Assembly: GCA_965216245.1 (NCBI GenBank)
Contig: OZ244145.1
Coordinates: forward strand, 820,943 to 884,942
DNA from: Chloroflexota bacterium
GTDB lineage: Bacteria; Chloroflexota; UBA11872; VXOZ01
Length of the DNA stretch: 64,000 nt
Reading direction: 5' to 3'
The position numbers and the translations under genes were made by a program. Shown here piece after piece: positions 1 to 18,034 of the stretch. The first letter of the stretch is position 1. The number at the start of each line of letters is the position of its first letter. Below the pieces are notes generated by a model that made no database searches, was not told the origin of the DNA, and worked only from the letters and a program-made list of their open reading frames with translations.

Positions 1-864
1 ATGGGTGTGCAGGTCGCCAAAGAAGATGCGGTCGCTGCTTGCCTCTACTACGTCAATCGGGTTGCTAACGCCGGATAAGCCAGATTCCCACGCCGCAGCC
101 GTAACCGTGACCGGGCCTACCGCATTCCTGGCAACGATGAATGGCCCAATCCGCGCCGTGCCGCCTTCACTCGCCGCAATGGCGAAAGGTGCAGGTCCGC
201 TGATGCCGCCCGGCTTCGCACCGAGAGCGACTTCCCCTTTAAAGTCCGTACAGACATTGCCATACGCATCCTCCACCCGCACCAGCACGGAAAATGCTTC
301 ACCAGTAGTAACCGTGGCAGGGGCAACCACGCCCAGGCGGGCGGGCGACCCGGCTACCACATCCACAATCGGCAATTCCGGCAACAACCGATAGCCTTTC
401 GGGTCGCCGCCGGGATAGCGCGGATTGCTGTAGCTGGCATTGCCCTGCACGTCGACCAAGACCTGGAAGTACATCTCAGTCATCGCGACTTCCTGGGCAC
501 GCGCGCGTTCGTAGAAACCGGCTACGTACGAGCCGGCATCACCGATGGTTACGGCGATTTCTTCGCCCGGTTGCAGCGCAGCACCCTCAACCGTGACAAA
601 GACACAAGGAAACTGCGCATGGTGGTATTTGAGCGGGTAGTCGTTCCGTACCTGCACGGAGACGCCACAGCTACCGCTCGTCGTGGCAATTACGTGGCCG
701 AGCCGCCACCGCACGCTATGCACACAGGGCGGAACCACGGCAATACCGCCGCCGGGAACGATACCGGCACTCCCCGCCGTATAGGTAAGCGTCCACGTGC
801 CAAATGCACCCGCAACGACCGGGCCCGCCGGATCAAGCGTGCAAGAGCCAAGTTCGGCTCGCAT
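1..864 (-). CDS. Hypothetical protein, C-terminally truncated by the window edge. It has a beta-rich N-terminal region followed by an FGDLHTH motif typical of the start of a PHP-type metal-dependent phosphoesterase domain. The start is an ATG at 864, or alternatively a GTG at about 957.
   Basis: Manual translation of the minus strand gives one uninterrupted frame from about 990 down to position 1 (..DRIFFGDLHTH at the edge). The ORF track does not list it because it has no in-window stop. The plus-strand ORFs 5-394 and 571-939 are low-complexity antisense artefacts. Confidence 0.45.
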   Translation of the reverse strand, partial: MRAELGSCTLDPAGPVVAGAFGTWTLTYTAGSAGIVPGGGIAVVPPCVHSVRWRLGHVIATTSGSCGVSVQVRNDYPLKYHHAQFPCVFVTVEGAALQPGEEIAVTIGDAGSYVAGFYERARAQEVAMTEMYFQVLVDVQGNASYSNPRYPGGDPKGYRLLPELPIVDVVAGSPARLGVVAPATVTTGEAFSVLVRVEDAYGNVCTDFKGEVALGAKPGGISGPAPFAIAASEGGTARIGPFIVARNAVGPVTVTAAAWESGLSGVSNPIDVVEASSDRIFFGDLHTH

Positions 865-1107
865 TGCAGCGTCTGTTGCTTCTGCAGTGACCTGCACGCC
901 ATGGGTAACACCCTGTTCTACTGGCGTTGGTGGTGCTGATTTCTTGCTTTCGCTCACTAGTGCGCTCCTCTGTAAGGAATGTAGCGCGATGACCTATCCG
1001 CTTTCCAATGCGCAGAGATTTGCCCCCCCCCCTCTTTGCCGTCCACTATGCCAGACGATCAACTCTAGACTTTGGGGCTATCTCACAACTCCCCATTTGT
1101 AAGGAGG

Positions 1108-1134
1108 GCGCAGGTTACAAACCTGCGCTACCGG
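1108..1134 (-). repeat. 26-nt hairpin repeat, reverse orientation (reverse complement is CCGGTAGCGCAGGTTTGTAACCTGCGC).
   Basis: Exact-match family with the copies at 19931 and 41751. Confidence 0.55.
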
Positions 1135-1295
1135 ACTACTCTCCCTTACTAAGACATTTCCGCGAACCGGTCCGCGAACCGGGACAGGCGAGAATACTCC
1201 TTCTCCCTGGGGAGAGGGCCGGGATGAGGGGAAATTCTCACCGTTTCAGCCAATTTCCGCGCGCTCGTCAGTTTTGCGCAAAGGTCTTCTTACGG

Positions 1296-2066
1296 CTACG
1301 CGCCAAATAGACGCGCCGCATTCTCTTTGAATAACTTCTGTTTGTACGCGTCCGCTATCTGCGTCTCGGTCTCGATGCTGAGCAACGCTGATTCATGGTA
1401 GTGCAGCGGAGAGTTGGAGCCAAACAGCACGTGGTCCGGCCCGATGGTCTTGCAGAGCTTTGCAACGTCGTGGATTGGCCCCTGCACGCGGCTGTTCTCT
1501 ACATACAGGTTATCGCGCTTATCCACGCCCTGCCAGATGCTCGTAACCTCTCGAAAACGCCCAGCAGTGACAAGAAAGCGCACCTGCGGGAAAGCGTTTA
1601 CCGTCTGGGCAATATCGCCAGCCGCAACATCCGGGACTATCACTAGACGGTGGTGATGCCGCACGTCTTCCAGGCCGATGGCAATGAGGATGAGCAGACC
1701 ATGCTCCTGCGCCATCTCCAGCAAGCGCAAGTTCTCTTGCCCAAGCAACTCATACTGGTGGTAATTGGGATGCAGGCGCAGATTCTGTACGCCAAGTTCT
1801 TCTAAGCAGATTTCCAAGTCTTCGTCCCAGCCCGGATACGCCGGATTGACGGTATACGCCGGAATGAAGCGGTCCGGATGTGTTTGCACGATCTTGTGCA
1901 GTTCGCGGTTGCCGACGAGCAGGTCTTTGAAGAAGACATTCTCCAGACGTGAAACCACAGCCTTTTCTATGCCGAGGGCATCCATCTTGCGCAGCAGGGC
2001 ATCAGGCTGAGAGCAGGGCAAGCGGCGAAACGGCCACTCGCCGACATAGGCATTACTATCGATCAT
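1296..2066 (-). CDS. Amidohydrolase-2 family (PF04909) paralog with degenerate metal ligands (MIDSNAY instead of IDVHVH; GSN instead of GTD). It is a probable non-metal or pseudoenzyme variant. The start was moved to the internal Met that aligns with the paralog N-termini.
   Basis: Fold-level similarity to the two downstream paralogs. The N-terminus MIDSNAY aligns with MKGDLVAIIDVHVHT and MNAVIIDVHVHPH. Using M16 removes the 28-bp overlap with the upstream gene. Confidence 0.6.
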   Translation of the reverse strand: MIDSNAYVGEWPFRRLPCSQPDALLRKMDALGIEKAVVSRLENVFFKDLLVGNRELHKIVQTHPDRFIPAYTVNPAYPGWDEDLEICLEELGVQNLRLHPNYHQYELLGQENLRLLEMAQEHGLLILIAIGLEDVRHHHRLVIVPDVAAGDIAQTVNAFPQVRFLVTAGRFREVTSIWQGVDKRDNLYVENSRVQGPIHDVAKLCKTIGPDHVLFGSNSPLHYHESALLSIETETQIADAYKQKLFKENAARLFGA

Positions 2067-2083
2067 GAAATCCTGCCCTTCTT

Positions 2084-2884
2084 TCAAGCCTGGTGCTGGG
2101 CCGACTTGCACGCCGCCAGCACGCGCGCCATGTTTCTGTAGAGAATCTTCTCTTTATCTTCATTCTGCAGGTCCGTGCCAAGTACTTTCGCAAGCTGTGA
2201 GGGGAACGAGCGGCCCGGCATGTCGGTGCCAAAGATTACGCGGTCAGCTCCAACATGGTCAACGAGTATGTGCACGCCAGCCGCATTGCATTCGTTACCG
2301 GCGATATCCAGCAAAACATTGGGACAACTACGGAAGACCTTAGCGCCGTATTCGTAATCACCGCCGGCATGCGCCGCAATGATGGTGGCGTTCGGATGGC
2401 GGCGCGCCATATCCGCCACTATCTCCGGCGACGATTCCCCGTAGCCTAGTCCATCTGCCTTCAGCCACGTGTGCTGCAAGGCCGGCACGCGGTAGTGCGC
2501 ACAGATTTCCAGCAAGCGGTCCACGCGTGGATCGGAGCACGGCAGCGCGTGCCACAGCTTGAGACCGACAAAGTGCTGCTCCGTCAAGCGTCTCTCTAGC
2601 TCCGCCGCCGCGGCGTCAGCATGGTAGGGGTTCACGTAGCAGAAACCGCGCACGCGCTCGGGATAGCGCTGCATGAGCGCGTACGTCTCGTCATTGGAGC
2701 GCCGGCAGAATTCCGGCGTTGGGAATGAGTAGCGAGAAGCATCAGCCACCGGCCGGATGGCGTACGTCACAAGCACCGCGTCGAATTGCTCCGCTATTTC
2801 GATCTGTTCCGCGAAGTCGTCCAACGATTTCCCTACGTCGGTATGGACGTGGACGTCAATAATCGCCACCAAATCGCCTTTCAA
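2084..2884 (-). CDS. Amidohydrolase-2 family metal-dependent hydrolase/decarboxylase (the superfamily includes ACMSD, LigW and LigI).
   Basis: IDVHVHT HxH motif, a later AHAGG His and a GTDMP Asp, with TIM-barrel amidohydrolase_2 spacing. It is a close paralog of 3027-3836. Confidence 0.75.
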   Translation of the reverse strand: MKGDLVAIIDVHVHTDVGKSLDDFAEQIEIAEQFDAVLVTYAIRPVADASRYSFPTPEFCRRSNDETYALMQRYPERVRGFCYVNPYHADAAAAELERRLTEQHFVGLKLWHALPCSDPRVDRLLEICAHYRVPALQHTWLKADGLGYGESSPEIVADMARRHPNATIIAAHAGGDYEYGAKVFRSCPNVLLDIAGNECNAAGVHILVDHVGADRVIFGTDMPGRSFPSQLAKVLGTDLQNEDKEKILYRNMARVLAACKSAQHQA

Positions 2885-2908
2885 GTCTCAAGTGGGATAG
2901 TTCGCGAT

Positions 2909-2936
2909 GTCATTCCGAGCGCAGCGAGGAATCTAG
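2909..2936. repeat. Solo terminal-repeat unit of the same family (GTCATTCCGAGCGCAGCGAGGAATCTAG) between the two amidohydrolase paralogs.
   Basis: Exact match of the 18-nt core to the 22859 and 23244 copies. Confidence 0.5.
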
Positions 2937-3026
2937 GGCCTCGGTTTGCCATCCCTCGCCAGTTCTCTGCCCAAAATGACGGCACAACGGACCTGAATTC
3001 AATAGGAGCGCATTGCGCCCAAGATT

Positions 3027-3836
3027 TCAACACTGTGTAGCAAAGATCAACGGATTCTTGATGGTCTTGGTCCCGGCCAGTACTCGCGCCATATTCCCAT
3101 AGAGAATGTTGTCTTTATCGTCTGTACTTAAGTCCGCGCCCAGCACCTTTGCCAGTTGCGATGGAAAGGAACGGCCCGGCATGTCTGTGCCGAAGATTAC
3201 ACGGTCCGCCCCCACGTGATCCACGAGTATTTCCACATAGCCGGCGTTGCACTCGTTGCCGCCAATGTCGAGCAACACGTTGTCACACGAACGAAAGACC
3301 TTCGCACCATACTCGTAGTCGCCGCCGGCGTGGGCGGCAATGATTGTGGTGCGCGGATGGCGTTTTGCCAGCGCGGCGACCATCGCCGGCGGCGATTCGC
3401 CGGTCTTCTGTCCATTCGCCTTAATCCACGTGTGCTGAAGTGCGGGCACGCGGTAGTGGGCGCAAATCTCCATGAGCGCATCGAGCCGTACATCAACGCA
3501 CGGCACCGCCACCCAGAGCTTGAGGCCGACGAAGTGCTGCTGCCCCAAACGAAAATCAAGTTCGTCACACGCCTCCCGCGCATGGCCGGGGTTCACGTAG
3601 GCGAATCCCTGCACGCGCTCAGGGTAACGCTCCATCAACACGTGAGTCTGATCGTTGCAGGCGCGGATGTTCTCCGGTGTAGGGTATTCGTGGTTGTTCC
3701 CGACCTCTACCGGCCGCACTGAGTAGGTGACAAGGTGGGCATCAAACTGCTCAGCAATAGCGATCAACTCAGCGAAGTCATCTAATTTGCGTGAAACGTG
3801 TGGGTGCACGTGTACGTCTATAATCACCGCATTCAC
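3027..3836 (-). CDS. Amidohydrolase-2 family metal-dependent hydrolase/decarboxylase (tandem paralog).
   Basis: IIDVHVHPH, AHAGGDYEYGAKVF and GTDMPGRSFPSQLAKVLG are conserved with 2084-2884. I estimate about 75-80% nucleotide identity from eyeballing aligned stretches. Confidence 0.75.
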   Translation of the reverse strand: MNAVIIDVHVHPHVSRKLDDFAELIAIAEQFDAHLVTYSVRPVEVGNNHEYPTPENIRACNDQTHVLMERYPERVQGFAYVNPGHAREACDELDFRLGQQHFVGLKLWVAVPCVDVRLDALMEICAHYRVPALQHTWIKANGQKTGESPPAMVAALAKRHPRTTIIAAHAGGDYEYGAKVFRSCDNVLLDIGGNECNAGYVEILVDHVGADRVIFGTDMPGRSFPSQLAKVLGADLSTDDKDNILYGNMARVLAGTKTIKNPLIFATQC

Positions 3837-4021
3837 GCTCTTCTTTGGTTACACTGGGTTGAACTGCGAAGTTTCAAATTGCAATAGGAAACCAATCGCC
3901 AGCATAAGAACCACTAATCACTACACCGCGCACCCGCTGGCAACTGCATAAACTCAATGACTCCATGCGTAGAACACGCTGGCTTAGCAGCAAATGCCGC
4001 TAAGCCAGCGCAGCACGTCTT

Positions 4022-5467
4022 CTACCAACCGCCCACAAGCTCCTGCCACTTCTCGATGATAATGTTCCACTCCTGTTCGACGTTTGCGAGACCTTCTTGA
4101 ATCGTGATGTTCCCCGCCATGACATCGGGCAGGAATCTACTCAACGACGTCCGCATCTCGTCAGCGCCGGGAATCGGCAGCGAATGCGACGCTCGGAACG
4201 GGATCTGATAGCTCTGGTGTTCGAGGAACGGATCACCCTCGGTGAAATCGGGCGAATTGGCGACGGAGAGTCGAATGGGCACGCGGTCCCAGGCCTTTGC
4301 CCAGCGAATGTTATTCTCCGGGCGTGACACGAACTCAATCCAAGCAAACGCCTCTTCGGGCACCGTCGTCCACGACGCCATGATCCAGATGTGATGACCG
4401 CTCCAACTCGCTTGGCGCACGGCGTTGGGCGGCTTCGGGTGCTCGATGATACTAAACCCGAAGTCCGGGTCAATTGGATAGATTTCCGCCTTGCGCGTGG
4501 AGTACGTTGCATACATTGAGGCGGTAAAGTCGTTGACAAGCGCAGCCCCACGCGGAGATCCAGAAGGACGAGCCGTCTTGTGCAGTGTAGCCAGCGCATC
4601 CCAGCCGCCCTGCATATCGTTTAGCTTCTTGACCCACGTCAGTGCCTCAACGGCTTCGGGGCTATTGATGGCCGCTTTGGTCAGGTCGTCACTGACCCGC
4701 TGGCCGCCGAGCTGTAAGAACGGCGTAATCCATTGGAACCGTCCGCCGCTGCCCCATTCGGGCGGGAAGCCCGCTACCACTACATTGCCAGCAGAATCTT
4801 TCCGCAGGGTCTTCTGAATGACCGATTCAAGCTCATCCCACGTTGCAGGACCATTTTCCGGGTCCAATCCATTTTCCAGAAAGATGCTATTGTGCATATA
4901 GATAACGCGCAGATCCGGGCCGTAAGGAAAGCCATAGAGCTGACCGTCTTTGCTCCAGACCATATTCTCGGTCAGGCTATCCCAAATGTCCTCCATATCG
5001 ATGTTGGAGCTCTTGACGAGGTCATTCAAACCGCGCGCCTGGCCGAGCGCACCGTGCTCAATGGCGTGCCACTCGCCCCAGGAACTAATGTCGTGAGGAG
5101 TGTTGGCAGCGAACGCCGTTCTGAATGCGGCATAGCGTTCGCCTGAATTACTGGACGGCGGATTGACATCAAAGTCGATATCGGGATGCTCTGCGCGAAA
5201 CTCCGCCACAAGCTCCGCAGATACACCCTCTTCATCCTGGAACTTGAAGTACGGATGCGTTGCAAACAGCACGTATACGGACTCTTTTTCGGGGGCAGCA
5301 GCCTCTGCTTGCGGTGCTTCCGCTTGCTCTTCTGTAGCCGCGGTCTGAACAGGCACGGCACCGCAAGCTGCAAGTGCGAGGACACCTAATGCGCCTCCTG
5401 AACCTACCAGAACGTTGCGGCGTGAAATTCGCTTTGCGTGAAAATCCATTGGTCTGCCTTTCTCCAC
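4022..5467 (-). CDS. ABC transporter extracellular solute-binding protein, family 1 (carbohydrate-type). It is a Tat-signal lipoprotein (SRRNVLVGSGGALGVLALAAC). An alternative start is MDFHAKR at 5449.
   Basis: RR motif followed by a lipobox Cys. A Glu/Ala/Pro-rich linker is followed by a periplasmic-binding-protein type fold. It is paralogous to 13056-14432 (shared DPENGPATWDE block). Confidence 0.75.
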   Translation of the reverse strand: MEKGRPMDFHAKRISRRNVLVGSGGALGVLALAACGAVPVQTAATEEQAEAPQAEAAAPEKESVYVLFATHPYFKFQDEEGVSAELVAEFRAEHPDIDFDVNPPSSNSGERYAAFRTAFAANTPHDISSWGEWHAIEHGALGQARGLNDLVKSSNIDMEDIWDSLTENMVWSKDGQLYGFPYGPDLRVIYMHNSIFLENGLDPENGPATWDELESVIQKTLRKDSAGNVVVAGFPPEWGSGGRFQWITPFLQLGGQRVSDDLTKAAINSPEAVEALTWVKKLNDMQGGWDALATLHKTARPSGSPRGAALVNDFTASMYATYSTRKAEIYPIDPDFGFSIIEHPKPPNAVRQASWSGHHIWIMASWTTVPEEAFAWIEFVSRPENNIRWAKAWDRVPIRLSVANSPDFTEGDPFLEHQSYQIPFRASHSLPIPGADEMRTSLSRFLPDVMAGNITIQEGLANVEQEWNIIIEKWQELVGGW

Positions 5468-5741
5468 ACTTCTACTTAGCTTTCCGGTCGCACAAACGCG
5501 CTACCTTGAGCGCTTTGCGCAGCCGCTCTTAGCCATCCATCGGCAAAAAGAACTTACGCGCCCGTACCTCCTTTCCGCTTAATTCGACAGTCCACTTTCG
5601 CCTGAGAGTAGCGGCCGTCGGCGGTATTCGGCTTGCTTAAGTTTTCGTTATTCTGCGCTGAGTCCGAACGGCGTCGCCCAAGGATTCTCTGCTCGATATC
5701 CTGCCAGGTGTTGGATTTCCAAACCGATCGCAGGGCAGTTG

Positions 5742-6518
5742 CTAGAGAATCTGCGACAAGAAACGGCGCACCCGCTCGTGGCGCGGATTATTGAAGAACT
5801 CAGCAGGCGGCAGGTCTTCGACGATCTGGCCTTCGTCGAACATAACGATGCGGTCGGCCACTTCGCGGGCAAAACCCAACTCGTGGGTGATAGCCACGAT
5901 GGTCATCTGCTGTGAAGAAGCCAGTTCTTTCATTACTTCCAGCACTTCCTTGATCATCTCCGGGTCCAGAGCCGACGTGGGCTCGTCGAAGAGCATGATC
6001 TTGGGTTGCATCGCCAGCGCACGGGCGATAGCGACACGCTGCTGCTGACCGCCCGAGAGTTCGCCTGGATATTTGTCAGCCTGTTCCGGTATGCCCACAC
6101 GCTCCAGGAGCTCCCGCGCACTGTTCTCCGCATCGGCCAAGGGCGTTTTGCGCACCTTGGTTGGAGCCAGCGTGATGTTACGCAGTACCGTTAGATGGGG
6201 AAAGAGGTTGAACGATTGGAACACCATGCCTACCTCTCGGCGAATGGCGTCTATGTTGCGCACATCATCGGTCATCTCGACCCCATCAACGATGATATCG
6301 CCGCGCTGATGTTGCTCCAAGCGGTTGATGGCGCGGATAAACGTAGACTTACCCGAGCCGGAGGGGCCGATAACCACCACCACCTCGCTGCGGCGCACAG
6401 AGGTGGTGACGCCACGCAGGGCATGGAAGTCACCGAACCACTTGTGTACGTCACGGGCCACTATGATGTTGTCTGCTTCAGGAGCCTGTTCCGACGCTAC
6501 TGCTGCTTCTGCTGCCAC
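5742..6518 (-). CDS. Polar amino-acid ABC transporter ATP-binding protein (AapP/GlnQ-like).
   Basis: Walker A GPSGSGKST, signature LSGGQQQRVAIARAL and Walker B MLFDEPTSALD. Confidence 0.85.
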   Translation of the reverse strand: MAAEAAVASEQAPEADNIIVARDVHKWFGDFHALRGVTTSVRRSEVVVVIGPSGSGKSTFIRAINRLEQHQRGDIIVDGVEMTDDVRNIDAIRREVGMVFQSFNLFPHLTVLRNITLAPTKVRKTPLADAENSARELLERVGIPEQADKYPGELSGGQQQRVAIARALAMQPKIMLFDEPTSALDPEMIKEVLEVMKELASSQQMTIVAITHELGFAREVADRIVMFDEGQIVEDLPPAEFFNNPRHERVRRFLSQIL

Positions 6519-6589: not shown

Positions 6590-7879
6590 TTACCGTTGGC
6601 CAACGCCAAGATGCCGTTCCACCCGACGACTGACAAATGACATTGTGTACGTAAAGATCCAGAACACCACCGCCACGAATATGAAGAGCTCCCGTGCGTT
6701 GTCCGCGAATTGGACGTTGCCCTGCACGATGGAGCGTCCCATCTCCAAAATATCCAGCATGCCGACAATGTAAACCAGACTCGTGTCCTTGAACAGCGAA
6801 ATGAACTGCCCCACGATTGCGGGTATCACATTGCGGATAGCCTGAGGCAATTGTATCAGCATGGTGACCTGCCAGCCCGGCAGACCCAGGGCACGTGCCG
6901 CCTCGGCTTGACCCGGATGCAGTCCCTGCAGTCCCCCACGAATATTCTCGGCCGTGTACGCCGCCGAGAAGAGCGTAATCACAATAGCCGCCCGCGTCAC
7001 GGAGTCGACGGGAAAGTTCGACGGCAAGGCGAGCGGTACCAGCACTTGCGACATGAAAAGCAGCGTAATCAGCGGTACGCCGCGAAAAACCTCGATGAAT
7101 ACCACGCAGAGAACCTTGACCACCGGCAGATTGCTCCGCCGTCCGAGCGCCAGCAGCACACCAATTGGAAAAGCAAAGAAGATACCCGATACTGCCAGAA
7201 TCAGGTTGAGCATCAGGCCGCCCCACTTACGCGGCGCCACCTCTTCCATGCCGGGAAAACCCGGTAATCCGTTGAGCAACAGTAGCAGGAACACGTAGAT
7301 CGCAATGCCGCCGAGCACGAACGTGCGTGGTTGCCCGGTTCTAGGATGGCTACCCAAGCCGTAGCCTAGGCCGATGGTCAACACGTTAGCCAGAATAAGA
7401 GCACGCACCCACCAGGGCATTACCACGCCCTCGTGGAAGAGGCCGTAGGGCAGCACTCCTAGCAACACCGTAACGACGCTATAGCCGATGGCAATGCGCC
7501 GGGCAGCTCCACCCCACATGGCGGCAGCCATGCCGAAGAGGATTGAGACCAGCAGCCAACCTACTAACGGCCGCCATGCGAGTTCTGTTGGGTACAGGCC
7601 GATGAGATACTGTTGCGGTCGGCTCGCGATGAGCGTCCAGTCAGCGGTGCCGAAAACCCAGCGTATAATGCTCCAGATCAACCATAGGAGCATCGGTACA
7701 GTGACCACGGTCACAATGCCGCTAAGCCAGTTGCCAAATAAGTTGGTCCTAGCCCAACCAATCCAACCTGTTTCTGTGAGTGGCGGAGGCAGTGAGGGCG
7801 CCGGTTGCCACGATTCCGCAGTAGCCATAAAGCAGCTAGCCTTAATTGAACTGGATGTGCCGGTTATAAAGATTGCCAA
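6590..7879 (-). CDS. Amino-acid ABC transporter permease (AapM/BztC-like large permease). The likely true start is the internal Met at about 7828, which removes the 38-bp overlap.
   Basis: Multiple TM segments and the EAA loop motif GQAEAARALGLPGWQVTMLIQLPQAIRNVIP. Confidence 0.8.
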   Translation of the reverse strand: MAIFITGTSSSIKASCFMATAESWQPAPSLPPPLTETGWIGWARTNLFGNWLSGIVTVVTVPMLLWLIWSIIRWVFGTADWTLIASRPQQYLIGLYPTELAWRPLVGWLLVSILFGMAAAMWGGAARRIAIGYSVVTVLLGVLPYGLFHEGVVMPWWVRALILANVLTIGLGYGLGSHPRTGQPRTFVLGGIAIYVFLLLLLNGLPGFPGMEEVAPRKWGGLMLNLILAVSGIFFAFPIGVLLALGRRSNLPVVKVLCVVFIEVFRGVPLITLLFMSQVLVPLALPSNFPVDSVTRAAIVITLFSAAYTAENIRGGLQGLHPGQAEAARALGLPGWQVTMLIQLPQAIRNVIPAIVGQFISLFKDTSLVYIVGMLDILEMGRSIVQGNVQFADNARELFIFVAVVFWIFTYTMSFVSRRVERHLGVGQR

Positions 7880-9038
7880 TCAGGGAGTATGTGAGACTGA
7901 AAAGCAAGTAAACGCCCATGATAATGAGAAATATGGTAACCGCTGGGGCCGTCTGAGTCATGGTCTTAGCCACACTGGTCAAGTCCGCGTAGCCGATGGC
8001 CAAAGCCAGACTACTGTTCTTAGTTAAGTTTAGGTACTGACTGATAAGAGGCGGGACGATGACACGCAGCGCCTGTGGGAAAGTAACGAAGCGCAACGTC
8101 TGCATGGTACCCAAGCCCAAAGAGCGGGATGCCTCGCTCTGTCCCCGCAATACGGATTGCAACCCACCGCGCACTATCTCGGCAATAAAGGCTGAGGTAT
8201 AGATGATCAATCCTAGCAACAACGCTGTCAGTTCGATAGATACGGCGTAGCCGCCTACCGGATGACCGAAGCGACCCTCCGGATGCGGGACACTCATGAT
8301 GAACGGGGCATCACCAATGATCACCCACACCACCCACGCAATCAAAGAACCCACTAACGCCACGCCAATCGCCCCCAACCAGGGATAGGACGAGCGGCCG
8401 GTTCGCAGTTCGCGCCGATCCAGATACAGGTGTGCGACGAACCCCAACGCGATAGCCGCTACAACGCATAGAAGCCACAACCCCGGCCGCTGTTGACCCT
8501 CAGGCCATGGAAACGACAACCCCGCGTTATTGTTCAGGTAGACAGCATCAAACCAGACAAATCCACCCTGTTGTACCGATGGCAGTCCCAGCAGCAAGAT
8601 GTACCAGAAGAAGAGTTGCACTAACAGGGGAACATTGCGAAAGATCTCCACGTAAACAGTAGCTACTTTGCTAATCACCCAGTTGCCGGAAAGCTGTACC
8701 GCGCCCACGATGATGCCTAGAGTAGTAGCGAGTATCACACCCACTATAGACACCATCAGCGTGTTGGTGGCGGCTACGAGGAAGGCATAGCCAAAGCTAT
8801 CGCTCTCTTCGTAGGGCAGCAGGTGTTCACTTATAGGCGTGGAGTACTCTCGGTTCAGAAACGACCAGCCGAAGGGAATGTCTCGTTGATCCATCGCAGA
8901 CGCAATGTTGGAGATGAAGAACGCCACAGCCGCCACCACAAGGATCCCCGACACGATCTGCGTGGTCCAGCTAAGGATACGAGAGTGTCGCCAAAGAGGA
9001 ATTCCCTGGTACGTTAGCGAAAGTCGCATTTCGTGCAA
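7842..9038 (-). CDS. Amino-acid ABC transporter permease (AapQ/BztB-like).
   Basis: EAA loop GQSEASRSLGLGTMQTLRFVTFPQALRVIVPP and polytopic membrane topology. Confidence 0.8.
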   Translation of the reverse strand: MHEMRLSLTYQGIPLWRHSRILSWTTQIVSGILVVAAVAFFISNIASAMDQRDIPFGWSFLNREYSTPISEHLLPYEESDSFGYAFLVAATNTLMVSIVGVILATTLGIIVGAVQLSGNWVISKVATVYVEIFRNVPLLVQLFFWYILLLGLPSVQQGGFVWFDAVYLNNNAGLSFPWPEGQQRPGLWLLCVVAAIALGFVAHLYLDRRELRTGRSSYPWLGAIGVALVGSLIAWVVWVIIGDAPFIMSVPHPEGRFGHPVGGYAVSIELTALLLGLIIYTSAFIAEIVRGGLQSVLRGQSEASRSLGLGTMQTLRFVTFPQALRVIVPPLISQYLNLTKNSSLALAIGYADLTSVAKTMTQTAPAVTIFLIIMGVYLLFSLTYSLIGNLYNRHIQFN

Positions 9039-9101: not shown

Positions 9102-10238
9102 CTAGCGCAGTGGCGCCGCATATATCTGACCGCCCTTGGGGCAGTCCGAGCACGGGGCATTCGACCACAACGCGTTGCGGGATCCTTCCCGCGGTAGATC
9201 GATGTCTGTCTCCGGACCCAAGTTCCGCGCATAGATCTCGCCGTAGTTCCCAACCATCTTGATTACGGTCTGCCCTACGATTTTATCGAGGCCCAATTCA
9301 TCTTGCCCGAACGAACCCTCTGTGCCAAGCAAGCGCTTTGCCTTCACGTTGTCCCCAACGGCCATCTCGTCAACGTTGGTCGAGTTGATACCGTACGCCT
9401 CGGCGTAAATCAAGATGCTCATTACCGTCTTTACAATGTCGAACCACTGCTCGTCGCCGTGAGGCACCAGCGGTCCCAGCGGCTCCTCGGAAATCGTCTC
9501 CGGCAGGATGACGTGTTCATCCGGATTAGTCAAAGAACTCCGCAGCGCCGTAAGCGCCGAGCGGTCGGTCGTGAACACTTCACAGGCGCCGCTCTTATAG
9601 GCCGCGAAGGCCACTTGCGCCTCTTCGAATGTCTTTGGATTATACTCCATATTGTTCTGGCGGAAGAAGTCGGCCATGTTCAGCTCAGAAGTGGTGCCGG
9701 TATTTACGCAGACCGCCGCGCCTGCCAACTCGTACGCGCTCGCCACTCCCAGGTTCCTAGGTACCATGAAGCCCTGGCCGTCATAGAACATCGTTTGCAC
9801 GAAATTTCCCCAAGCGGCGTCGCGGGACGTCGTCCACGTTGTCACGTACACGAGTAAATCCACTTCGCCCGACTGCATCACAGGCCCGCGCTCGGCAGCC
9901 GAAATCAGACGAATCTCAACGGCATCAGGATCACCTAACACGCCCGCAGCCACGGCCCGGCAGAGATCGATGTCAAAACCGACACTATTACCGGTTTCGT
10001 CCACGTAGCCAAACCCCGGCGTGTCGTTGAGGCTGGCACAGATGAGACGACCCCGAGCGCGCACTGCCTCAAGACGCGAGGTCTCAGCCTGCGCCACTAC
10101 AGCCTCGGTCTCAGGTTTTTCGGCAGAATTTTCCATCTCCGGCTCGGTAGTCGTGGCGCAGGCCGCGCTCAGCGCGAACATGAGCGCCATTCCCAAGACA
10201 GCCAAACACTTTCCCGTCTGATTCAAGCAAGTCCTCAT
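9102..10238 (-). CDS. General L-amino-acid ABC transporter substrate-binding lipoprotein (AapJ-like), copy 1.
   Basis: Signal peptide plus lipobox LSAAC. It has a family-3 SBP-like fold and shares most of its length with 10495-11622. Confidence 0.8.
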   Translation of the reverse strand: MRTCLNQTGKCLAVLGMALMFALSAACATTTEPEMENSAEKPETEAVVAQAETSRLEAVRARGRLICASLNDTPGFGYVDETGNSVGFDIDLCRAVAAGVLGDPDAVEIRLISAAERGPVMQSGEVDLLVYVTTWTTSRDAAWGNFVQTMFYDGQGFMVPRNLGVASAYELAGAAVCVNTGTTSELNMADFFRQNNMEYNPKTFEEAQVAFAAYKSGACEVFTTDRSALTALRSSLTNPDEHVILPETISEEPLGPLVPHGDEQWFDIVKTVMSILIYAEAYGINSTNVDEMAVGDNVKAKRLLGTEGSFGQDELGLDKIVGQTVIKMVGNYGEIYARNLGPETDIDLPREGSRNALWSNAPCSDCPKGGQIYAAPLR

Positions 10239-10439
10239 GGCATTCCCAGCCTCTTTGCTAAAGGCACCCTAAGACTCCACATCAATCAGAGCATACACCC
10301 ATTGCCGCAGCAGGGAAACCATTCGCAGTGCGGCACGCTGCGTAAGCTAGTCTATCTTGAACCTTGACCCAGCCCCTCATAACTACAGCGCAACACTGCT
10401 CCAGCATCCAGCAGCGCAGCGAGGTGGTAATACCAAAAG

Positions 10440-10475
10440 TCGCGTCGACCCGGAAGAGGTCCAGGCCGACGCGAC
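10440..10475. terminator. Hairpin GTCGCGTCG-N18-CGACGCGAC between the two aapJ paralogs.
   Basis: 9-bp stem read directly from the sequence. Confidence 0.35.
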
Positions 10476-10494
10476 GATTATCAGCGACTACGAA

Positions 10495-11622
10495 CTAGCG
10501 CAGCGGCGCAGCATAGATCTGTCCGCCCTTCGGGCAGTCAGTGCAAGGCGCATTCGACCACAGCGCATTGCGCGAACCCTCACGCGGCAGATTGACGTCC
10601 GTCTCCGGACCCAAGTTCCGCGCATAGATCTCGCCATAGTTGCCTACTGCCTTGATAACGTTCTGGCCCACTAGCTTATCAAGTCCCAACTGTTCTTGAC
10701 CAAATCCGCCTTCCGTGCCCAGCAAGCGCTTCGCCTTCACATTATCGCCAACGGCCATCGCGTCAACGTTGGTCGAGTTGATGCCGTAGGCTTCGCCGTA
10801 GATCAGGATGCTCATCACGGTCTTCACAATGTCGAACCACTGCTCGTCACCGTGGGGCACCACCGGTCCCAGCGGCTCCTCGGAAATCGTCTCCGGTAGA
10901 ATGATGTGTTCATCCGGATTAGGCAGAGCCGTCCTCAGCGCGGCAAGCTGCGAGCGGTCGTTAGTAAAGACTTCGCACGCGCCACTCTTGTAGGCTTCAA
11001 GCACCACGTCTGTATCTTCATAGACCTTCGGGTTGTACTCCAAGCCGTTCTGGCGGAAGTAGTCGGCCATGTTCAACTCGGTGGTCGTACCGCTGGTCAC
11101 ACAGACCGCGGCGCCAGCCAACTCAAGTGCGCTACTCACACCCAGGCTCTTCGGAACCATGAAGCCCTGGCCGTCGTAGAACATTGTCTGCGCGTAGTTA
11201 CCCCATGCAGCATCGCGCGAGGTCGTCCATGTGACGGTGCGTACGAGCAAGTCCACCTCGCCCGACTGGACGGTAGGTCCGCGCTCGGCAGCCGTAATCA
11301 AGCGGATTTCAAATGCATCCGGGTCGTTCAGCACGGCCGCTGCCACGGCGCGGCAAAGGTCGATGTCGAAGCCCACGCTATTGCCGGCCTCGTCTATGGA
11401 ACCGTAGCCCGGCACATCGTTGCGGCTAGCGCAAATGACGTGTCCCCGTTCCTTCACGGTTTCCAAGCGTGAAGTCTTAGCCGTTTCCACCACCACGGGC
11501 TTGGGTTCGCCATCTTTTTCCATCTCTCCCGAATCCGCCTCGTCATCACCGCACGCCACACTGAAAAGCAGCGCGAGCATGACGCCCAAAACGACCAGGA
11601 GCTTACAAAGATTTCTCATCAT
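10495..11622 (-). CDS. General L-amino-acid ABC transporter substrate-binding lipoprotein (AapJ-like), copy 2 (tandem paralog).
   Basis: Signal peptide plus lipobox FSVAC. Long near-identical blocks are shared with copy 1 (e.g. GNSVGFDIDLCRAVAA, LPETISEEPLGP). Confidence 0.8.
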   Translation of the reverse strand: MMRNLCKLLVVLGVMLALLFSVACGDDEADSGEMEKDGEPKPVVVETAKTSRLETVKERGHVICASRNDVPGYGSIDEAGNSVGFDIDLCRAVAAAVLNDPDAFEIRLITAAERGPTVQSGEVDLLVRTVTWTTSRDAAWGNYAQTMFYDGQGFMVPKSLGVSSALELAGAAVCVTSGTTTELNMADYFRQNGLEYNPKVYEDTDVVLEAYKSGACEVFTNDRSQLAALRTALPNPDEHIILPETISEEPLGPVVPHGDEQWFDIVKTVMSILIYGEAYGINSTNVDAMAVGDNVKAKRLLGTEGGFGQEQLGLDKLVGQNVIKAVGNYGEIYARNLGPETDVNLPREGSRNALWSNAPCTDCPKGGQIYAAPLR

Positions 11623-11849: not shown

Positions 11850-12791
11850 CTAACCAACCACCACGGACTGCTGCGCAAGCACACGTTCCGCTTCACGAGT
11901 TGAACGATCGTGGTATTCCACCCAATTCTCAAGACCGTACTCGCTCTTGATGCGTGACATCGGCCACGCGTCGTCGTTGGATTCCACCATGAATACGCCG
12001 TCGTCCCGTGTACCTATTATAGTTACCCTGTGCCCGAGATCCGTCTGCATCTGGCGAATCTGCTCGTATTGCATGTCGTAGTGGAAAACTTCAGCTTCAA
12101 GATCAACCGTACTGTGAGCCACGTGCACGCCCAAGCCACTGGCGGCAACCTCGTCTCCGAGTTTGTTGATAATGCGCGAGCGTCCGCCGCTCACCGAAGA
12201 GACGATGATGTAACTGTGCAGCCAGGCATACGCTCGCAACCGCAAGCCGCCGTCGCACATGCTTGGGAAGACTACAAGCTCGGCCCCTGCCGCGCCGAGC
12301 CGCGCCCACTCTTCCGGATAGTCAACGTCGAAGCAGATGAGCATTCCTACCCTGCCAAAATCCGTCTCGAAAACCGGCAATTCGGAATAGACTCCGGGAA
12401 CCGTCCCTGCCTCGAGCTCTCCCAGCGTAGGATGGACCTTGTCATATTGACCGACGATTTCGCCCTGACGATCAAAGAGGACGCTGGTATTGAGCCGCAC
12501 GTTACCGCGCACCTCACACATGCCGGCAACGACATACATGCCATGCTGACGGGCCTTTTCCGCATAGACGTCTGAGGTCGGACCGGGAATGGGCTCCCAT
12601 GCTTTCTCACGTTCCTCCGCGTCGCCCGACAGGCCCAAAATAGTGAATTCTTCCGGCAAGCACGCAAGATCAGCGCCCAAGCCTCCCATCCGATCCAGCA
12701 GTTCCGCCGCCAATTCGTGGTTCGCGGCAATCGAAGCGCGGCTACTCATGTGGCCGACGCACGCAGTGGCTACCAACGCTTTGCGCGGCAT
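11850..12791 (-). CDS. Carbon-nitrogen hydrolase family protein (nitrilase/amidase superfamily).
   Basis: CN-hydrolase layout with catalytic Glu, Lys and Cys. The Cys lies in the GMLICFD context. Confidence 0.75.
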   Translation of the reverse strand: MPRKALVATACVGHMSSRASIAANHELAAELLDRMGGLGADLACLPEEFTILGLSGDAEEREKAWEPIPGPTSDVYAEKARQHGMYVVAGMCEVRGNVRLNTSVLFDRQGEIVGQYDKVHPTLGELEAGTVPGVYSELPVFETDFGRVGMLICFDVDYPEEWARLGAAGAELVVFPSMCDGGLRLRAYAWLHSYIIVSSVSGGRSRIINKLGDEVAASGLGVHVAHSTVDLEAEVFHYDMQYEQIRQMQTDLGHRVTIIGTRDDGVFMVESNDDAWPMSRIKSEYGLENWVEYHDRSTREAERVLAQQSVVVG

Positions 12792-13055: not shown

Positions 13056-14432
13056 TTACAGTCCTAGTCGTTCTGCCCACTCGTCCAGCGAATCCTGCCC
13101 GGCCTTCTCATACTGGGCGAGCGCTTCGGGAATAGTAGTCTTGCCGTCTTTGAGATCATTCAGCATCGTGTTGACCTCTCTGCGAATTACGGCAATCCCC
13201 GGCACGCCAAGCCAGAAATGAGCGCCCTCCATCTGGGCGATGACAAACTCCTTGAACGGGTCGCCTTCGGTGTAGTCCGCACTCTGTGCAGTGGCCTTCT
13301 GCACAGGGATGCGATCCATCGCAATCGACCACTTCAAATCAATATCGGGGCGGTACATGAAGTCCAGGAAGGCAAAACCTCCATCAGGATTCTCGCTGCC
13401 GCTCGGCAGGCAGAGCGCCCAGTCGCCTGTGTACGTGGCCAATTCGCCGCCTTCTGACGGCAAACCATAGCTTGCGTAGACCCAACTGAGCCCTTCGAAC
13501 CCGTTAATAGTGGGACGAGACGCATTCGTCGCGTATAGGTGCGACATAATCCCGTTACCGAATTGCTGGTTGAAGTTGGTGCCCTCATGGAAAGCCTTGA
13601 TCGCCGGCCAACCGCCCTGGGCCGCAAATTGCTTCATATGCCACTGCAGCGCCCGCACCGCCTTCTCATTGTTAACGGTGAATTTGGAGCGGTCGTCGCT
13701 GAAAATCGACCCGCCCTGCTGCCAGTAAGGCACCATCCATTGCGCCGAACCGCCGGAGCCACGGTATGGGTCCCAGGATAATCGCGCAACCTTGTCCCCT
13801 TCCGCTTTGAAAGTCTTGAGCACCACGGAATCCATCTCGTCCCAGGTTGCGGGCGGGTTCTCGGGGTCAAGCCCGGCTTCTAAGTAGTGCTCCGCATTGA
13901 TGTAAAGGAGCCGCGTATCTATGCTATAGGGCAACGCGGACCGTTGACCGCGGTAAGTGGTCTGCTTATCGGCATCCGGCCACATCTTTTCGGGCGCCAC
14001 GTTCTCGGAGGTCTTCTGGTACGAATCGAGCCAGCGAGTCACTTCTAGCAGAGCCCACTCATTCTGAATCCACGACTGGGTCTTCACCACGTCGGGAGCG
14101 GTGCCCGCGGCGACTACGGTAGCCACGTCATTGAAACCGCCATTTGGCTGTGGATTGGAAACCATGGTGTAGCCGCTGGTGGCATCGAATTCCCCTTTGA
14201 TCTCCTGAGGAACGGGTGCCTGCCCGAAGTCCCAATTGTTAAAGCCGTGGTGCCACACAATGACATCTTTGACTTCCGGTTCCGGTTGAGCTTCCGGTTG
14301 CTTGGCTTCAGGCTGGGCCTCTGCCTCCCCAGCACTCGGAGCAGTCACCGCCTGCCCACAAGAGCCAAGTAGCATAGCGCCGCCAATTAGCGGTGTGGCT
14401 CCCAAAATTGTACGCCGTGAAAAACGGGACAT
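13056..14432 (-). CDS. ABC transporter family-1 solute-binding lipoprotein with Tat-type signal (orphan; no permease nearby).
   Basis: MSRFSRRTILGA..LLGSCG RR motif plus lipobox, followed by an EAQPEAKQPE linker. It is paralogous to 4022-5467. Confidence 0.75.
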   Translation of the reverse strand: MSRFSRRTILGATPLIGGAMLLGSCGQAVTAPSAGEAEAQPEAKQPEAQPEPEVKDVIVWHHGFNNWDFGQAPVPQEIKGEFDATSGYTMVSNPQPNGGFNDVATVVAAGTAPDVVKTQSWIQNEWALLEVTRWLDSYQKTSENVAPEKMWPDADKQTTYRGQRSALPYSIDTRLLYINAEHYLEAGLDPENPPATWDEMDSVVLKTFKAEGDKVARLSWDPYRGSGGSAQWMVPYWQQGGSIFSDDRSKFTVNNEKAVRALQWHMKQFAAQGGWPAIKAFHEGTNFNQQFGNGIMSHLYATNASRPTINGFEGLSWVYASYGLPSEGGELATYTGDWALCLPSGSENPDGGFAFLDFMYRPDIDLKWSIAMDRIPVQKATAQSADYTEGDPFKEFVIAQMEGAHFWLGVPGIAVIRREVNTMLNDLKDGKTTIPEALAQYEKAGQDSLDEWAERLGL

Positions 14433-14971: not shown

Positions 14972-16438
14972 GTGGGCATCAGGATCTTACATACCAACGA
15001 CTTGCATGGCTTCGTGCGCGCGGCGCCGCGCCTGGCGCAGCGCGTGCAAGCAGAGCGCGCACAACACGACACTGTGCTCTTCATAGACGTTGGTGACTTC
15101 TTTCGACTAAATCGCCACCGCCGTCCGCAAGATGATGACCATGTGACGGCCTGGACTCTGCGCTCGCTTAGGTACGACATCGTAACGCCCGGGAATTCGG
15201 AACTCTCGCGCTTCGATCCTTGGCATCTGGACTTCTTGATCGCTCAGAACTGCGGCGCCATGCTCTGCACCAGCGGGTTCAACGCGCGCCTGCCGGCGTC
15301 GTGCCGACCCTACCGCTTGTTCACGCTGGACGGCTATCGGGTGTTGTTCATCGGCATCTGCACGGAAGACAACCACTGGGACTTGGCAGCGCCCACCAAC
15401 AACTTCTACGCTTCTGCGCGCCGTTCGGCGGCGAAGACCGCGAGCTTGGTGAACGCCTACCGCGATCGCGTAGATATGGTCGTTGTGCTCTCCCACTCCG
15501 GCATGGCGCAGGACATCCTGCTTGCCGAACAGATTCCAGAGATAGATCTCATTCTCAGCGGCCATTGCCACCATCCAACACTAAGGCCGATCTGCATTGG
15601 TAAGACGAAAATCGTCCAGGCCGGCCTCAACGGCATGTTTATGGGTCAGGTGGATATTACATCCTCAGATGGGAAACCTGTGATTGAGTCTAAGCTGCAT
15701 TCCATAGACGCGGAATCCCCTGAGGACCCGGTGATGGAGCGCCTTCTGCGCCTGCAGGGCCGACGGAAAGACCCCGAAATGCTGCGAACCATCGGCACTG
15801 CCGGGGAGAACGTGGGACAGGGCTACCTTTCGAGCAATGGGCTAGGCAACACCGTCACGGACATTTGGCGCAAGGCGACAGGAGCCGATATTGCTTGGAC
15901 GAAAGCGACCTTCATCACGCCGCTCTTTGCCCCAGGTCATGCCCTTACGGCCTGGGATATCCAACTCTGCATCAGAGGGTTCCCTCTCTCAAAATTGCTG
16001 ACGCTGACAGGCAATCAAGTCCGGCAAGCGCTCGAACACAGTGTCGCAGACCAATCGTATGCCTTCTTGCCACCCGATCGGCGTGACGAACTCGTGGGGC
16101 ATCTGGAATCCGCGTCGGCCCAGCCAGGCTGTAATTTCCTCCACCAATCCGGCATGCAGGTTCACGTCGACTTGACGCAACCGTTCGGCGAACGAGTGCA
16201 AGAGATTCGAGTGGGTGACAAGCCGCTGCAGCCAGAGGCTACCTACCGTGTGGCGATGGACGCATTCCACGCCAGAGGCGGATCGGCGTTTACGATGCTT
16301 GCCGATGCCCAAAGCCGAGAGGATCTAAGCATGGAAAACCCGATTGAGGCGTACGTGCGCGAGAATGGGACTCTCGAGGGTACGCTCGATGAGCGCTACA
16401 GCATCGTTGGGGCCACAGAGCTTGCCGCGCCGGCATGA
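14972..16438 (+). CDS. 5'-nucleotidase/UshA-like bifunctional metallophosphatase (calcineurin-like phosphoesterase domain plus 5'-nucleotidase C-terminal domain). There is no signal peptide.
   Basis: N-terminal ILHTNDLHG motif, a GNSE (GNHE-like) block and a long C-terminal substrate-binding domain. Confidence 0.75.
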   Translation: MGIRILHTNDLHGFVRAAPRLAQRVQAERAQHDTVLFIDVGDFFRLNRHRRPQDDDHVTAWTLRSLRYDIVTPGNSELSRFDPWHLDFLIAQNCGAMLCTSGFNARLPASCRPYRLFTLDGYRVLFIGICTEDNHWDLAAPTNNFYASARRSAAKTASLVNAYRDRVDMVVVLSHSGMAQDILLAEQIPEIDLILSGHCHHPTLRPICIGKTKIVQAGLNGMFMGQVDITSSDGKPVIESKLHSIDAESPEDPVMERLLRLQGRRKDPEMLRTIGTAGENVGQGYLSSNGLGNTVTDIWRKATGADIAWTKATFITPLFAPGHALTAWDIQLCIRGFPLSKLLTLTGNQVRQALEHSVADQSYAFLPPDRRDELVGHLESASAQPGCNFLHQSGMQVHVDLTQPFGERVQEIRVGDKPLQPEATYRVAMDAFHARGGSAFTMLADAQSREDLSMENPIEAYVRENGTLEGTLDERYSIVGATELAAPA

Positions 16439-16462
16439 CCGCAGAATGAACGTCGAGTACAC

Positions 16463-17359
16463 GTGATTCGCACGCTGCTTTCACTCACTGCTATCGGGGC
16501 CCTTGGCGTGGGGGCTTACGGAGCCTTCATTGAGCCATACCGCCTGGGCGTGCGGCGCGTCCGCGTGCCTGTATCGTCCCTCCGCGCACCCAATATCGCT
16601 ATTCGCATTCTCCATATTACCGATTTGCACTTTCGCGCTGGGGATTCACGGCGGGTGCGCATGCTGCAGCAGCTTTCCGAGTTGAAACCCGATCTCCTGC
16701 TCCTGACGGGCGACCTCATCCACGGCGGTCGTGATCCTGACGCCGAACTGCAGACGGTTCTTGAGGCGCTTGCGCCAATCCGCGCCAATTATGGCGCTTA
16801 TGCCGTGCTTGGAAATCACGACCACGTGCGCCGCCACCGCATAAGAAGTTGGTTCGGGCACCCGTTGCACTTTCACGATACGAGCAAACTGGTACGGACG
16901 CTGGAGTCCCACCAAATTCGCGTTCTAACCAACACGCATGCAAACGTTACTATTCACGGACAGCCCCTCACACTCTTTGGCGTGGACGATCCTTTCTACT
17001 GGCTTGACGACATTCAGCGTGCAACGGCGGGAGCGCCAAAGGATACCACACGCTTGCTGCTCGCGCACACGCCCGACATCATTCGCACCTTGGGCGATGA
17101 ACGGTTTGATCTCATACTTTCCGGCCACACGCACGGCGGGCAAATACGCTTGTCGGAGAGCATCGTTTGGCATACAAACACGCGCATCAAGCTGCCGCGC
17201 AACGCCGGCTTGATGCGGGTCGGCGACCACCTCGTCTATTGCTCCGGCGGAGTTGGGGTTTCCATGCTGCCAATCCGCCTCAATTGTCCGCCCGAAGTGG
17301 GATGGATCGAACTCGTGGCGGCACGGCCTGCAGAGCCGCAGCGCTCTGCAACAGCGTAG
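16463..17359 (+). CDS. Membrane-anchored calcineurin-like metallophosphoesterase (YkuE/CpdA-like).
   Basis: N-terminal TM helix, then the ILHITDLH, GDLIHGG, GNHD and GHTHGGQ phosphoesterase motifs. Confidence 0.7.
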   Translation: MIRTLLSLTAIGALGVGAYGAFIEPYRLGVRRVRVPVSSLRAPNIAIRILHITDLHFRAGDSRRVRMLQQLSELKPDLLLLTGDLIHGGRDPDAELQTVLEALAPIRANYGAYAVLGNHDHVRRHRIRSWFGHPLHFHDTSKLVRTLESHQIRVLTNTHANVTIHGQPLTLFGVDDPFYWLDDIQRATAGAPKDTTRLLLAHTPDIIRTLGDERFDLILSGHTHGGQIRLSESIVWHTNTRIKLPRNAGLMRVGDHLVYCSGGVGVSMLPIRLNCPPEVGWIELVAARPAEPQRSATA

Positions 17360-17367
17360 CAGCACAG

Positions 17368-18027: not shown

Positions 18028-18034
18028 GGAAGCA

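Follow-up and report, generated by a model that had tools for sequence, protein, structure and literature searches.

The amidohydrolase cluster

The window analysed here is a 64,000-nt stretch of a Chloroflexota bacterium genome (assembly GCA_965216245.1, contig OZ244145.1, positions 820,943 to 884,942), and the subject of this work is the gene cluster at its left end. The cluster comprises the genes for a sugar-type solute-binding protein (SBP), three members of the Amidohydro_2 family (PF04909; here A, B and C in the order of transcription) and a DUF3604 protein that is cut by the window edge (Table 1). In agreement with the original prediction, which had been made from the DNA letters without database searches, all five genes lie on the minus strand of the window. 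The same prediction described their junctions as short or overlapping. This was found to apply to B and C only, where the TGA stop codon of B (2086-2084) is followed by a purine-rich spacer of 17 nt and then by the ATG of C; SBP and A are separated by 185 nt, A and B by 142 nt, and C and DUF3604 by 338 nt. The homologues of C are almost all of ~256 aa and begin with MIDxN. The start of C was therefore placed at ATG 2066 rather than at GTG 2111, leaving no overlap with B.

Canonical ligands in paralogs A and B

Both A and B matched the whole PF04909 profile, with scores of 83.6 bits (A, profile positions 1-287) and 98.5 bits (B) against a gathering score of 26.4 bits. No NCBIfam model matched A, B, C or the DUF3604 fragment. 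The two proteins are 71% identical, and both carry the beta1 HxH, the beta5 and beta6 His and the beta8 Asp of metal-dependent Amidohydro_2 proteins, within the motifs IIDVHVH, QHTW, AAHAGG (AAHAGGDYEYG in A) and FGTDMPGRS. For B, alignment to solved Amidohydro_2 proteins placed QHTW, AAHAGG and FGTDMP at the beta5 His, beta6 His and beta8 Asp, respectively, confirming the earlier description of A and B as closely related paralogs that keep the HxH, His and Asp ligands. The ratio of non-synonymous to synonymous substitution rates (dN/dS) was 0.05-0.13 for A against nine of ten orthologues and 0.17 against a divergent, 71%-identical copy (L013); for B it was 0.06-0.11.

Fold and ligand loss in gene C

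The PF04909 match of C (61.9 bits) extended over profile positions 40-288 only, leaving the N-terminal HxH block unmatched. In this first block, C reads MIDSNAY where A and B read IIDVHVH, and the beta1 HxH is absent. At the position of the beta8 Asp, the Asn of FGSNSP in C aligned with D314 of LigW2, including the deposited D314N mutant, and with the Asp of gamma-resorcylate decarboxylase. The canonical Asp is missing here too, and across the family the same position is variable, being occupied by N, H, Y, G, L or F. The beta5 and beta6 His are also absent, with C reading LILIA-IG and FLVTAGR compared to ALQHTW and IIAAHAGG in A and B. This last loss was read from the strand positions of a structural model together with the family consensus, as the MAFFT alignment was poorly registered in the region and gave no clean column.

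The AlphaFold2 model of C, built with 31 family members, had a predicted local distance difference test score (pLDDT) of 94.3 and a predicted template modelling score (pTM) of 0.92. It exhibited eight strand-helix units forming the (beta/alpha)8 barrel of the amidohydrolases, and the residues after strands 5 and 6 were Ala/Ile-Gly and Ala-Gly, not His. The best Foldseek matches were to the group of ACMSD, gamma-resorcylate decarboxylase and LigW (template modelling score ~0.75, E ~1e-12); CRMP-5 and DPEP3 were also present among the fold matches. To its neighbour B, C could be aligned by BLAST with 30% identity over only 53 residues.

Based on the model, C carries the Amidohydro_2 fold without any canonical ligand, which matches the original proposal of a third paralog that had lost every metal ligand and kept the fold-defining blocks. 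The NAY and GSN positions on which that proposal was founded proved to be homologous to ligand positions, both in the alignments with LigW2 and gamma-resorcylate decarboxylase and in the family alignment. Chance or misaligned ligand loss was considered and ruled out by these LigW2 and gamma-resorcylate decarboxylase alignments and by the strand positions of the model.

The ligand-less family and its conservation

Relatives of C were first collected by a word-indexed search, which yielded 90 sequences down to 25% identity. A scan of one genome per species with a 13-sequence alignment gave at least 518 confirmed loci, and an exhaustive profile search gave 807 clusters (at 50% identity) at E<=1e-30 and 3352 at E<=1e-10. 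The hosts include Chloroflexota, Planctomycetota (including Kuenenia, Gimesia and Pirellulaceae), Verrucomicrobiota, Acidobacteriota and Lentisphaeria. Among the matches listed, the closest relatives of the window module were found on complete Chloroflexota chromosomes of ~3.5 Mb assembled from metagenomes, where C is 97% identical. Judging by isolate names such as SB0662 and Plut, other relatives, also metagenome-assembled genomes, may come from sponge and coral hosts. Three copies of the module, with 97%, 58% and 56% identity to C, were observed in each of three ~3.5-Mb Chloroflexota genomes (L006/L020/L029, on the single chromosome OZ244922.1; L007/L022/L025; L008/L018/L026).

Intact orthologues of C were present at all 85 loci examined. 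The dN/dS of C was 0.05-0.12 against ten orthologues, indistinguishable from the values for A, B and the SBP, and the mean pairwise divergence of the ligand-less family (0.57) was close to that of the partner family to which A and B belong (0.59), indicating no relaxation in C.

In 76 non-redundant sequences of the ligand-less family, the near-invariant residues were D3 (99%), N5 (92%), W11-P12-F13-R14 (R14 97%), N53, N74, W80, R97, P100, Y102, H103 (97%), D134 (95%), R136 (100%), H139 (93%) and E225 (93%); N101 (86%) and E133 (87%) were less conserved. The N-terminal pattern is DxNxx with a variable second position. Some of the conserved blocks are those of Amidohydro_2 proteins in general, namely N53, N74-P75 and the (E/D)LxRC helix; WPFR, HPNYHxY and EDxRxxH are specific to the ligand-less family, in which DxN is conserved as well. 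Judging from the model, the conserved polar residues would lie at or just after strands beta1, beta4, beta5 and beta8, on the catalytic face of the barrel. By its sequences, this appears to be an ancient, separate family with invariant polar residues of its own. Full-text searches of the literature found no description of it, which is not proof that none exists.

Conserved pairing with a partner amidohydrolase

The first neighbourhoods inspected (Gimesia, a 5-Mb Chloroflexota contig, a member of the Lentisphaeria and a syntenic Chloroflexota chromosome) all placed the ligand-less gene directly behind a canonical Amidohydro_2 gene of ~260-270 aa. The pairing was then counted with hidden Markov models of both families at 85 loci with flanks of ~6 kb. 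A partner-family gene was found on the same strand at 73 of these and on the opposite strand at three; nine had none, four of which are cut beside the gene on one side. For the 73 same-strand loci, the nearest partner was upstream in 59 and downstream in 14. Most pairs are adjacent, the widest nearest gap being 490 nt, and in 42 of the 73 the partner and the ligand-less gene overlap by exactly 4 nt. In most paired loci the partner has the canonical ligands.

The gene pair has been kept across five phyla, and the genes around it vary by lineage. The distance matrices of the two families were strongly correlated (r = 0.89, Mantel p ~0.001), which agrees with co-inheritance and is not in itself proof of contact. 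The 58%-identical paralogous module repeats the arrangement of the window, in which an SBP of the same family precedes two partner genes and a single ligand-less gene.

Natural fusions and their predicted structure

Among the best 150 representatives of the ligand-less family, eight proteins of 520-600 aa proved to be fusions with a partner domain. The two domains are joined by linkers of 30-50 residues, with the partner domain first in six and the ligand-less domain first in two. One fusion, P0091, occurs in identical form in two NCBI assemblies that are independent of each other, one being a closed chromosome of 7.8 Mb, and so does not reflect an assembly error; these assemblies are, we presume, Gimesia maris genomes.

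A second fusion, P0159, from a forest-soil contig, has all canonical ligand positions in its N-terminal half (LIDIHGH, QHTW, GGHTGG and YGTDVAGRS) and a C-terminal half of the ligand-less type (LLDANSF, WPTRR, PGYHTY, EDSRMHH and FGTNAP). AlphaFold2 gave this protein a mean pLDDT of 87.3 and a pTM of 0.88, with only the linker (266-284), which is predicted as disordered, below a pLDDT of 50. Since each barrel makes up less than half of the chain, a pTM of this size would not be reached unless the relative position of the two were predicted with confidence. P0159 is thus predicted as a compact two-barrel unit with confidently packed domains. On the same contig (L088:4134-6419), a CN-hydrolase that is 30% identical to the one in the window and an SBP_bac_1 protein are encoded beside the fusion, together with a class-III aminotransferase and an AraC regulator.

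In Gimesia, the fusion (ligand-less domain followed by partner domain, 600 aa) opens with a leader, RREFLTTSATVGFAA, that resembles a twin-arginine translocation (Tat) signal. There is a 4-nt overlap between its gene and the end of a DUF1501 gene, which itself lies behind a PSCyt1/PSCyt2/PSD1 gene, and the arrangement (L089 and L090, 1662-7803) is the same in two NCBI assemblies. A Tat-like leader on the ligand-less part was also seen in some unfused proteins of the lineages in which the partner lies downstream, and the DUF1501-like gene family was present at 12 loci, mostly of planctomycete, verrucomicrobial and Kuenenia lineages. DUF1501 and PSCyt genes together form gene pairs that are themselves enigmatic.

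Solute-binding protein, DUF3604 and neighbouring genes

The SBP of the cluster matched the sugar-type profiles PF13416 (SBP_bac_8, 98 bits) and PF01547 (SBP_bac_1, 68 bits), and its nearest solved relatives are sugar or glycerol-3-phosphate SBPs (E 1e-12 to 1e-8). By eye, its N-terminus, RISRRNVLVGSGGALGVLALAACG, shows a Tat-like SRR motif (SRRNVL) and a LAAC lipobox. Its dN/dS was 0.05-0.08. The same SBP family was found beside the amidohydrolase module at 17 loci, including the paralogous cluster.

This SBP had been thought to have neither a permease nor an ATPase partner. That stands for a sugar-type transporter, as no MalF/MalG-type permease pair was found within the 64-kb window, but not for ABC genes in general, an ABC ATPase and two permeases being located directly upstream (Table 1). 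Judging from the size of its permeases and its own two SBP_bac_3 proteins, the upstream transporter is probably of the polar-amino-acid type. The only other transporter permeases in the window, a pair of ~630 aa, presumably belong to ABC exporters. With two other lone SBPs, the window holds three in 64 kb, which indicates that orphan SBPs are a trait of the genome rather than a feature special to the amidohydrolase cluster.

Table 1. Positions of the cluster genes and of other features in the window
Feature	Position	Strand	Remarks
DUF3604 gene, N-terminal 319 codons	1..957	-	starts at GTG 957; cut by the window edge; 671 aa in orthologues
Ligand-less Amidohydro_2 family member C	1296..2066	-	256 aa from ATG 2066; mechanical open reading frame up to GTG 2111
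Amidohydro_2 paralog B, partner family	2084..2884	-	266 aa; canonical ligand positions present; directly upstream of C
Amidohydro_2 paralog A, partner family	3027..3836	-	269 aa; canonical ligand positions present
SBP, sugar-type	4022..5467	-	481 aa from GTG 5467; alternative Met 6 codons in
ABC ATPase	5742-6518	-	directly upstream of the SBP
Two ABC permeases	6590-9038	-	~400 aa each
Two SBP_bac_3 proteins	9102-11622	-	
CN-hydrolase (nitrilase superfamily)	11850-12791	-	adjoins the lone SBP at 13056-14432
Lone sugar-type SBP (SBP_bac_1/8)	13056-14432	-	no adjacent permease or ATPase genes
5'-Nucleotidase/metallophosphoesterase, second metallophosphoesterase, DUF1614 (seven-transmembrane), M20 peptidase	14972-19252	+	no relation to the cluster seen
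Lone sugar-type SBP (SBP_bac_1/8)	43167-44615	+	no adjacent permease or ATPase genes

The DUF3604 fragment ends at the window edge with FFGDLHTH and is 96% identical over 319 aa to a full-length gene in a relative (L006:7042-9057). The fragment alone had no Pfam match. Full-length orthologues scored 39.8 bits (L006) and 50.7 bits with PF12228 (DUF3604), for which the gathering score is 20.4. The gene had been read as the start of a PHP-type protein. At E<=0.1 the full-length orthologue had no match to PHP (PF02811), and no PHP protein of solved structure was related to it in sequence; the likeness of the GDLHTH motif to PHP is one by eye only, and the gene is better called DUF3604. A literature search returned no paper tying DUF3604 to amidohydrolases, DUF3604 appearing in one unrelated paper. 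Beyond the point corresponding to the window edge, the cluster of the 97%-identical relative L006 (7042-11791) goes on with the remainder of the DUF3604 protein (671 aa in all), followed by two or three GNAT acetyltransferases and by another DUF3604 protein of only 500 aa; in L005 a DegT-type aminotransferase and an S-methyltransferase then follow.

In the 338-nt gap between C and DUF3604 (958-1295), an exact tandem duplication of TCCGCGAACCGG was observed at 1159-1182, with a unit of 12 nt, as well as nine consecutive G near 1022-1030 of the minus strand and weak inverted repeats. The motif CCCTCTCCCCAGGGAGAAGG of this gap has no second copy in the window. A promoter and terminator scan gave counts at or below those of shuffled sequences, with no terminator-like site in the gap, and a search of positions 1-6000 against Rfam gave no match.

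In other lineages, the neighbours of the pair included a class-III aminotransferase (8 of 90 loci), Gfo/Idh/MocA oxidoreductases, xylose-isomerase-like TIM proteins, RidA, ThuA, a heparinase-like protein, a polysaccharide deacetylase, a sulfatase and a CN-hydrolase with an SBP. No conserved third gene that would name the substrate was found in the loci compared, the neighbours being lineage-dependent. As a hint, the themes of these neighbours point to a nitrogen-containing carbohydrate derivative as the putative substrate. The uptake-plus-hydrolysis or decarboxylation pathway suggested originally is plausible, given the recurrence of the SBP family beside the module.

Comparison with known systems

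The nearest precedent for the proposed architecture is AibH1H2, the 2-aminoisobutyrate hydroxylase of Rhodococcus wratislaviensis, an (alpha-beta)2 heterotetramer of two PF04909 members in which AibH1 was judged to be auxiliary or structural (PMC10401708). The likeness lies in the heteromeric PF04909 architecture, which for B and C is proposed from sequence and models. In AibH2 six ligands form a dinuclear Mn/Fe site, and a mononuclear metal is bound in AibH1, whereas here the partner has a ligand set of the mononuclear type and C has none. AibH1H2 is moreover an oxygenase with Rieske and reductase partners, an adjacent Rieske protein or reductase being reported to co-occur with AibH2-like genes at a frequency of 90% (PMC10401708), and its proteins are of ~350 aa compared to ~260 aa here. 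In window positions 1-22000 and in the neighbourhoods read, no gene for a Rieske protein or a reductase was observed, and the PDB searches gave no significant sequence match to the AibH chains. Neither the six-residue dinuclear set nor relatedness to AibH2 or PtmU3 was found. With a different ligand pattern and no sequence relationship beyond the fold, the pair is not a member of the AibH1H2 oxygenase group.

With ACMSD, gamma-resorcylate decarboxylase and LigW, C shares the fold blocks (the N of helix 2, the NP after beta3 and the (E/D)LxRC helix) at an identity of 12-19%. These enzymes form oligomers whose active site can be completed from the subunit next to it; according to the title of entry 4ifk, ACMSD needs an Arg from the neighbouring subunit. 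However, they are homo-oligomers with metal ligands in every subunit, and it is A and B, not C, that resemble them in the ligand set. LigI-type lactonases, which are metal-independent, keep the His and Asp residues and use them as catalytic groups. C differs from them in that the beta1 His pair, the beta5 His and the beta8 Asp are all absent, and it was not assigned to the LigI type.

CRMP-5 and DPEP3 are non-catalytic members of the wider amidohydrolase superfamily. In prozymes, such as that of trypanosome AdoMetDC, a conserved dead paralog is needed as the partner of an active one (PMC5201418; bioRxiv 10.1101/776112). C resembles the prozymes, the CRMPs and DPEP3 in being a conserved paralog that has lost the canonical catalytic residues. 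Those examples are, however, eukaryotic and encoded by unlinked genes, while the present one is bacterial, operon-encoded, ancient, sometimes fused and in another branch of the superfamily. A dead paralog serving an active one is in itself an already known idea.

Interpretation

With moderate confidence, the sequence and model data are taken to indicate an obligate two-subunit amidohydrolase-2 enzyme of which C is the ligand-less subunit. An ancient duplication would have given rise to the partner and ligand-less families, which would since have been inherited as a unit. The two proteins would usually be translated from overlapping or nearly touching genes, or as one polypeptide in the lineages where they are fused, and their TIM barrels would pack in a fixed arrangement. 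In the window, the unfused B and C, and possibly A and C, would form the heteromer. Metal-dependent chemistry would take place at a centre in the canonical partner B, and probably also in its recent duplicate A, rather than in C; C may complete, shape or stabilise the enzyme, for which AibH1H2 and ACMSD are precedents within PF04909. Encoded behind a lipoprotein sugar-type SBP and ahead of a DUF3604 hydrolase-like gene, the Chloroflexota module would probably act on a compound that has been taken up, the candidate reactions being those of other Amidohydro_2 enzymes, namely hydrolysis, decarboxylation or hydration.

The original prediction offered either a metal-independent chemistry or a non-catalytic partner subunit for C. 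The pairing across five phyla, the 4-nt overlaps, the fusions and the packed fusion model lend strong comparative support to the second of these as far as a partner subunit is concerned. The word 'non-catalytic' goes further than the data, given the invariant polar residues that C has of its own.

Several observations weigh against a two-subunit enzyme with its catalytic metal in the partner. Enzymes of consecutive steps likewise show adjacent, overlapping and even fused genes. At about five loci whose flanks are adequate, there is no partner within ~6 kb. The alignment used for the P0159 model was deep for the ligand-less half only. The retention of D3, N5, R14, H103, E133, D134, R136, H139 and E225 fits an active or binding site in C better than an inert scaffold. 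Finally, where the partner lies downstream (L044, L045, L049, L050, L058, L059, L062, L067, L068, L072, L078, L079 and L084, with a further variant in L071), it has itself lost the HxH and Asp (IWDSYFT, FGSHLPSRS) and kept QHTW and AHAGGEW. This type was seen in Kuenenia, Rhodopirellula, other Planctomycetota and some Verrucomicrobiota, and the Gimesia fusion belongs to it as well. It follows that not every module can have its metal-dependent catalysis in the partner.

The same residues and lineages bear on the strongest alternative, that C is an enzyme itself. It would work at a relocated or non-canonical site, either metal-free or with new ligands drawn from H99/H103, E133/D134 and H139, and catalyse the step before or after that of the partner, with pairing and fusion serving substrate channelling. 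The invariant or near-invariant, family-specific polar residues at or just after strands beta1, beta4, beta5 and beta8 would be explained in this way, as would a former Asp position that varies freely, as though the old site had been abandoned rather than randomly degraded. Purifying selection on C is as strong as on the canonical enzymes, and in the downstream-partner lineages the module persists with neither protein retaining HxH and Asp. On the other side, no Amidohydro_2 enzyme is known to work without the beta1, beta5 and beta8 residues lost from C, even the metal-free LigI having kept them, and subunits show 1:1 pairing that is near-obligate across unrelated gene contexts more typically than pathway neighbours do. 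An independent enzyme is judged unlikely, though it deserves serious consideration. It also overlaps with the two-subunit reading, as a composite site is possible. In particular, the ligand-less protein and its partner may together form a composite or wholly non-canonical site from DxN, WPFR, HPNYH and EDxRxxH, with or without a newly ligated metal, a suggestion that is put forward only as a speculative one.

A further possibility is that C is a non-enzymatic ligand-binding or regulatory protein, acting as a sensor or chaperone for the partner or for a compound delivered by the SBP, and forms no stable heteromer. This would suit a conserved, pocket-like polar set without catalytic ligands and the presence of CRMP-5 and DPEP3 among the structural matches. 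The fusions and the confident two-domain packing, however, argue for a stable association, and no DNA-binding or signalling domain is attached, making this explanation improbable. As for C being a decaying duplicate of the neighbouring amidohydrolases, to which the loss of the canonical ligands could have pointed, the intact 256-aa frame and purifying selection (dN/dS 0.05-0.12) in all relatives, the short and weak BLAST match to B and the five-phyla family with its own motifs rule it out for practical purposes, and with it the frameshifts that the original prediction had considered as a sign of a simple pseudogene.

Amidohydro_2 proteins are routinely annotated as 'metal-dependent hydrolase'. 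The family described here, from hundreds of species and comprising ~800 clusters, lacks every canonical ligand, and it forms a travelling unit with a second Amidohydro_2 member. Confirmation of the heteromer would make it the second two-subunit architecture in PF04909 after AibH1H2 and would lead to the correction of thousands of gene annotations. A composite or non-canonical site, if it exists, would mean that the amidohydrolase superfamily has a catalytic solution not recognised before; the planctomycete, verrucomicrobial and Kuenenia lineages would show it most clearly. The pair, or the natural fusions, provide a defined target for finding the substrate. A function for the pair would also illuminate the orphan-SBP gene sets of sponge- and coral-associated and free-living Chloroflexota, with up to three modules per genome, and the PSCyt/DUF1501 gene sets of the planctomycetes.

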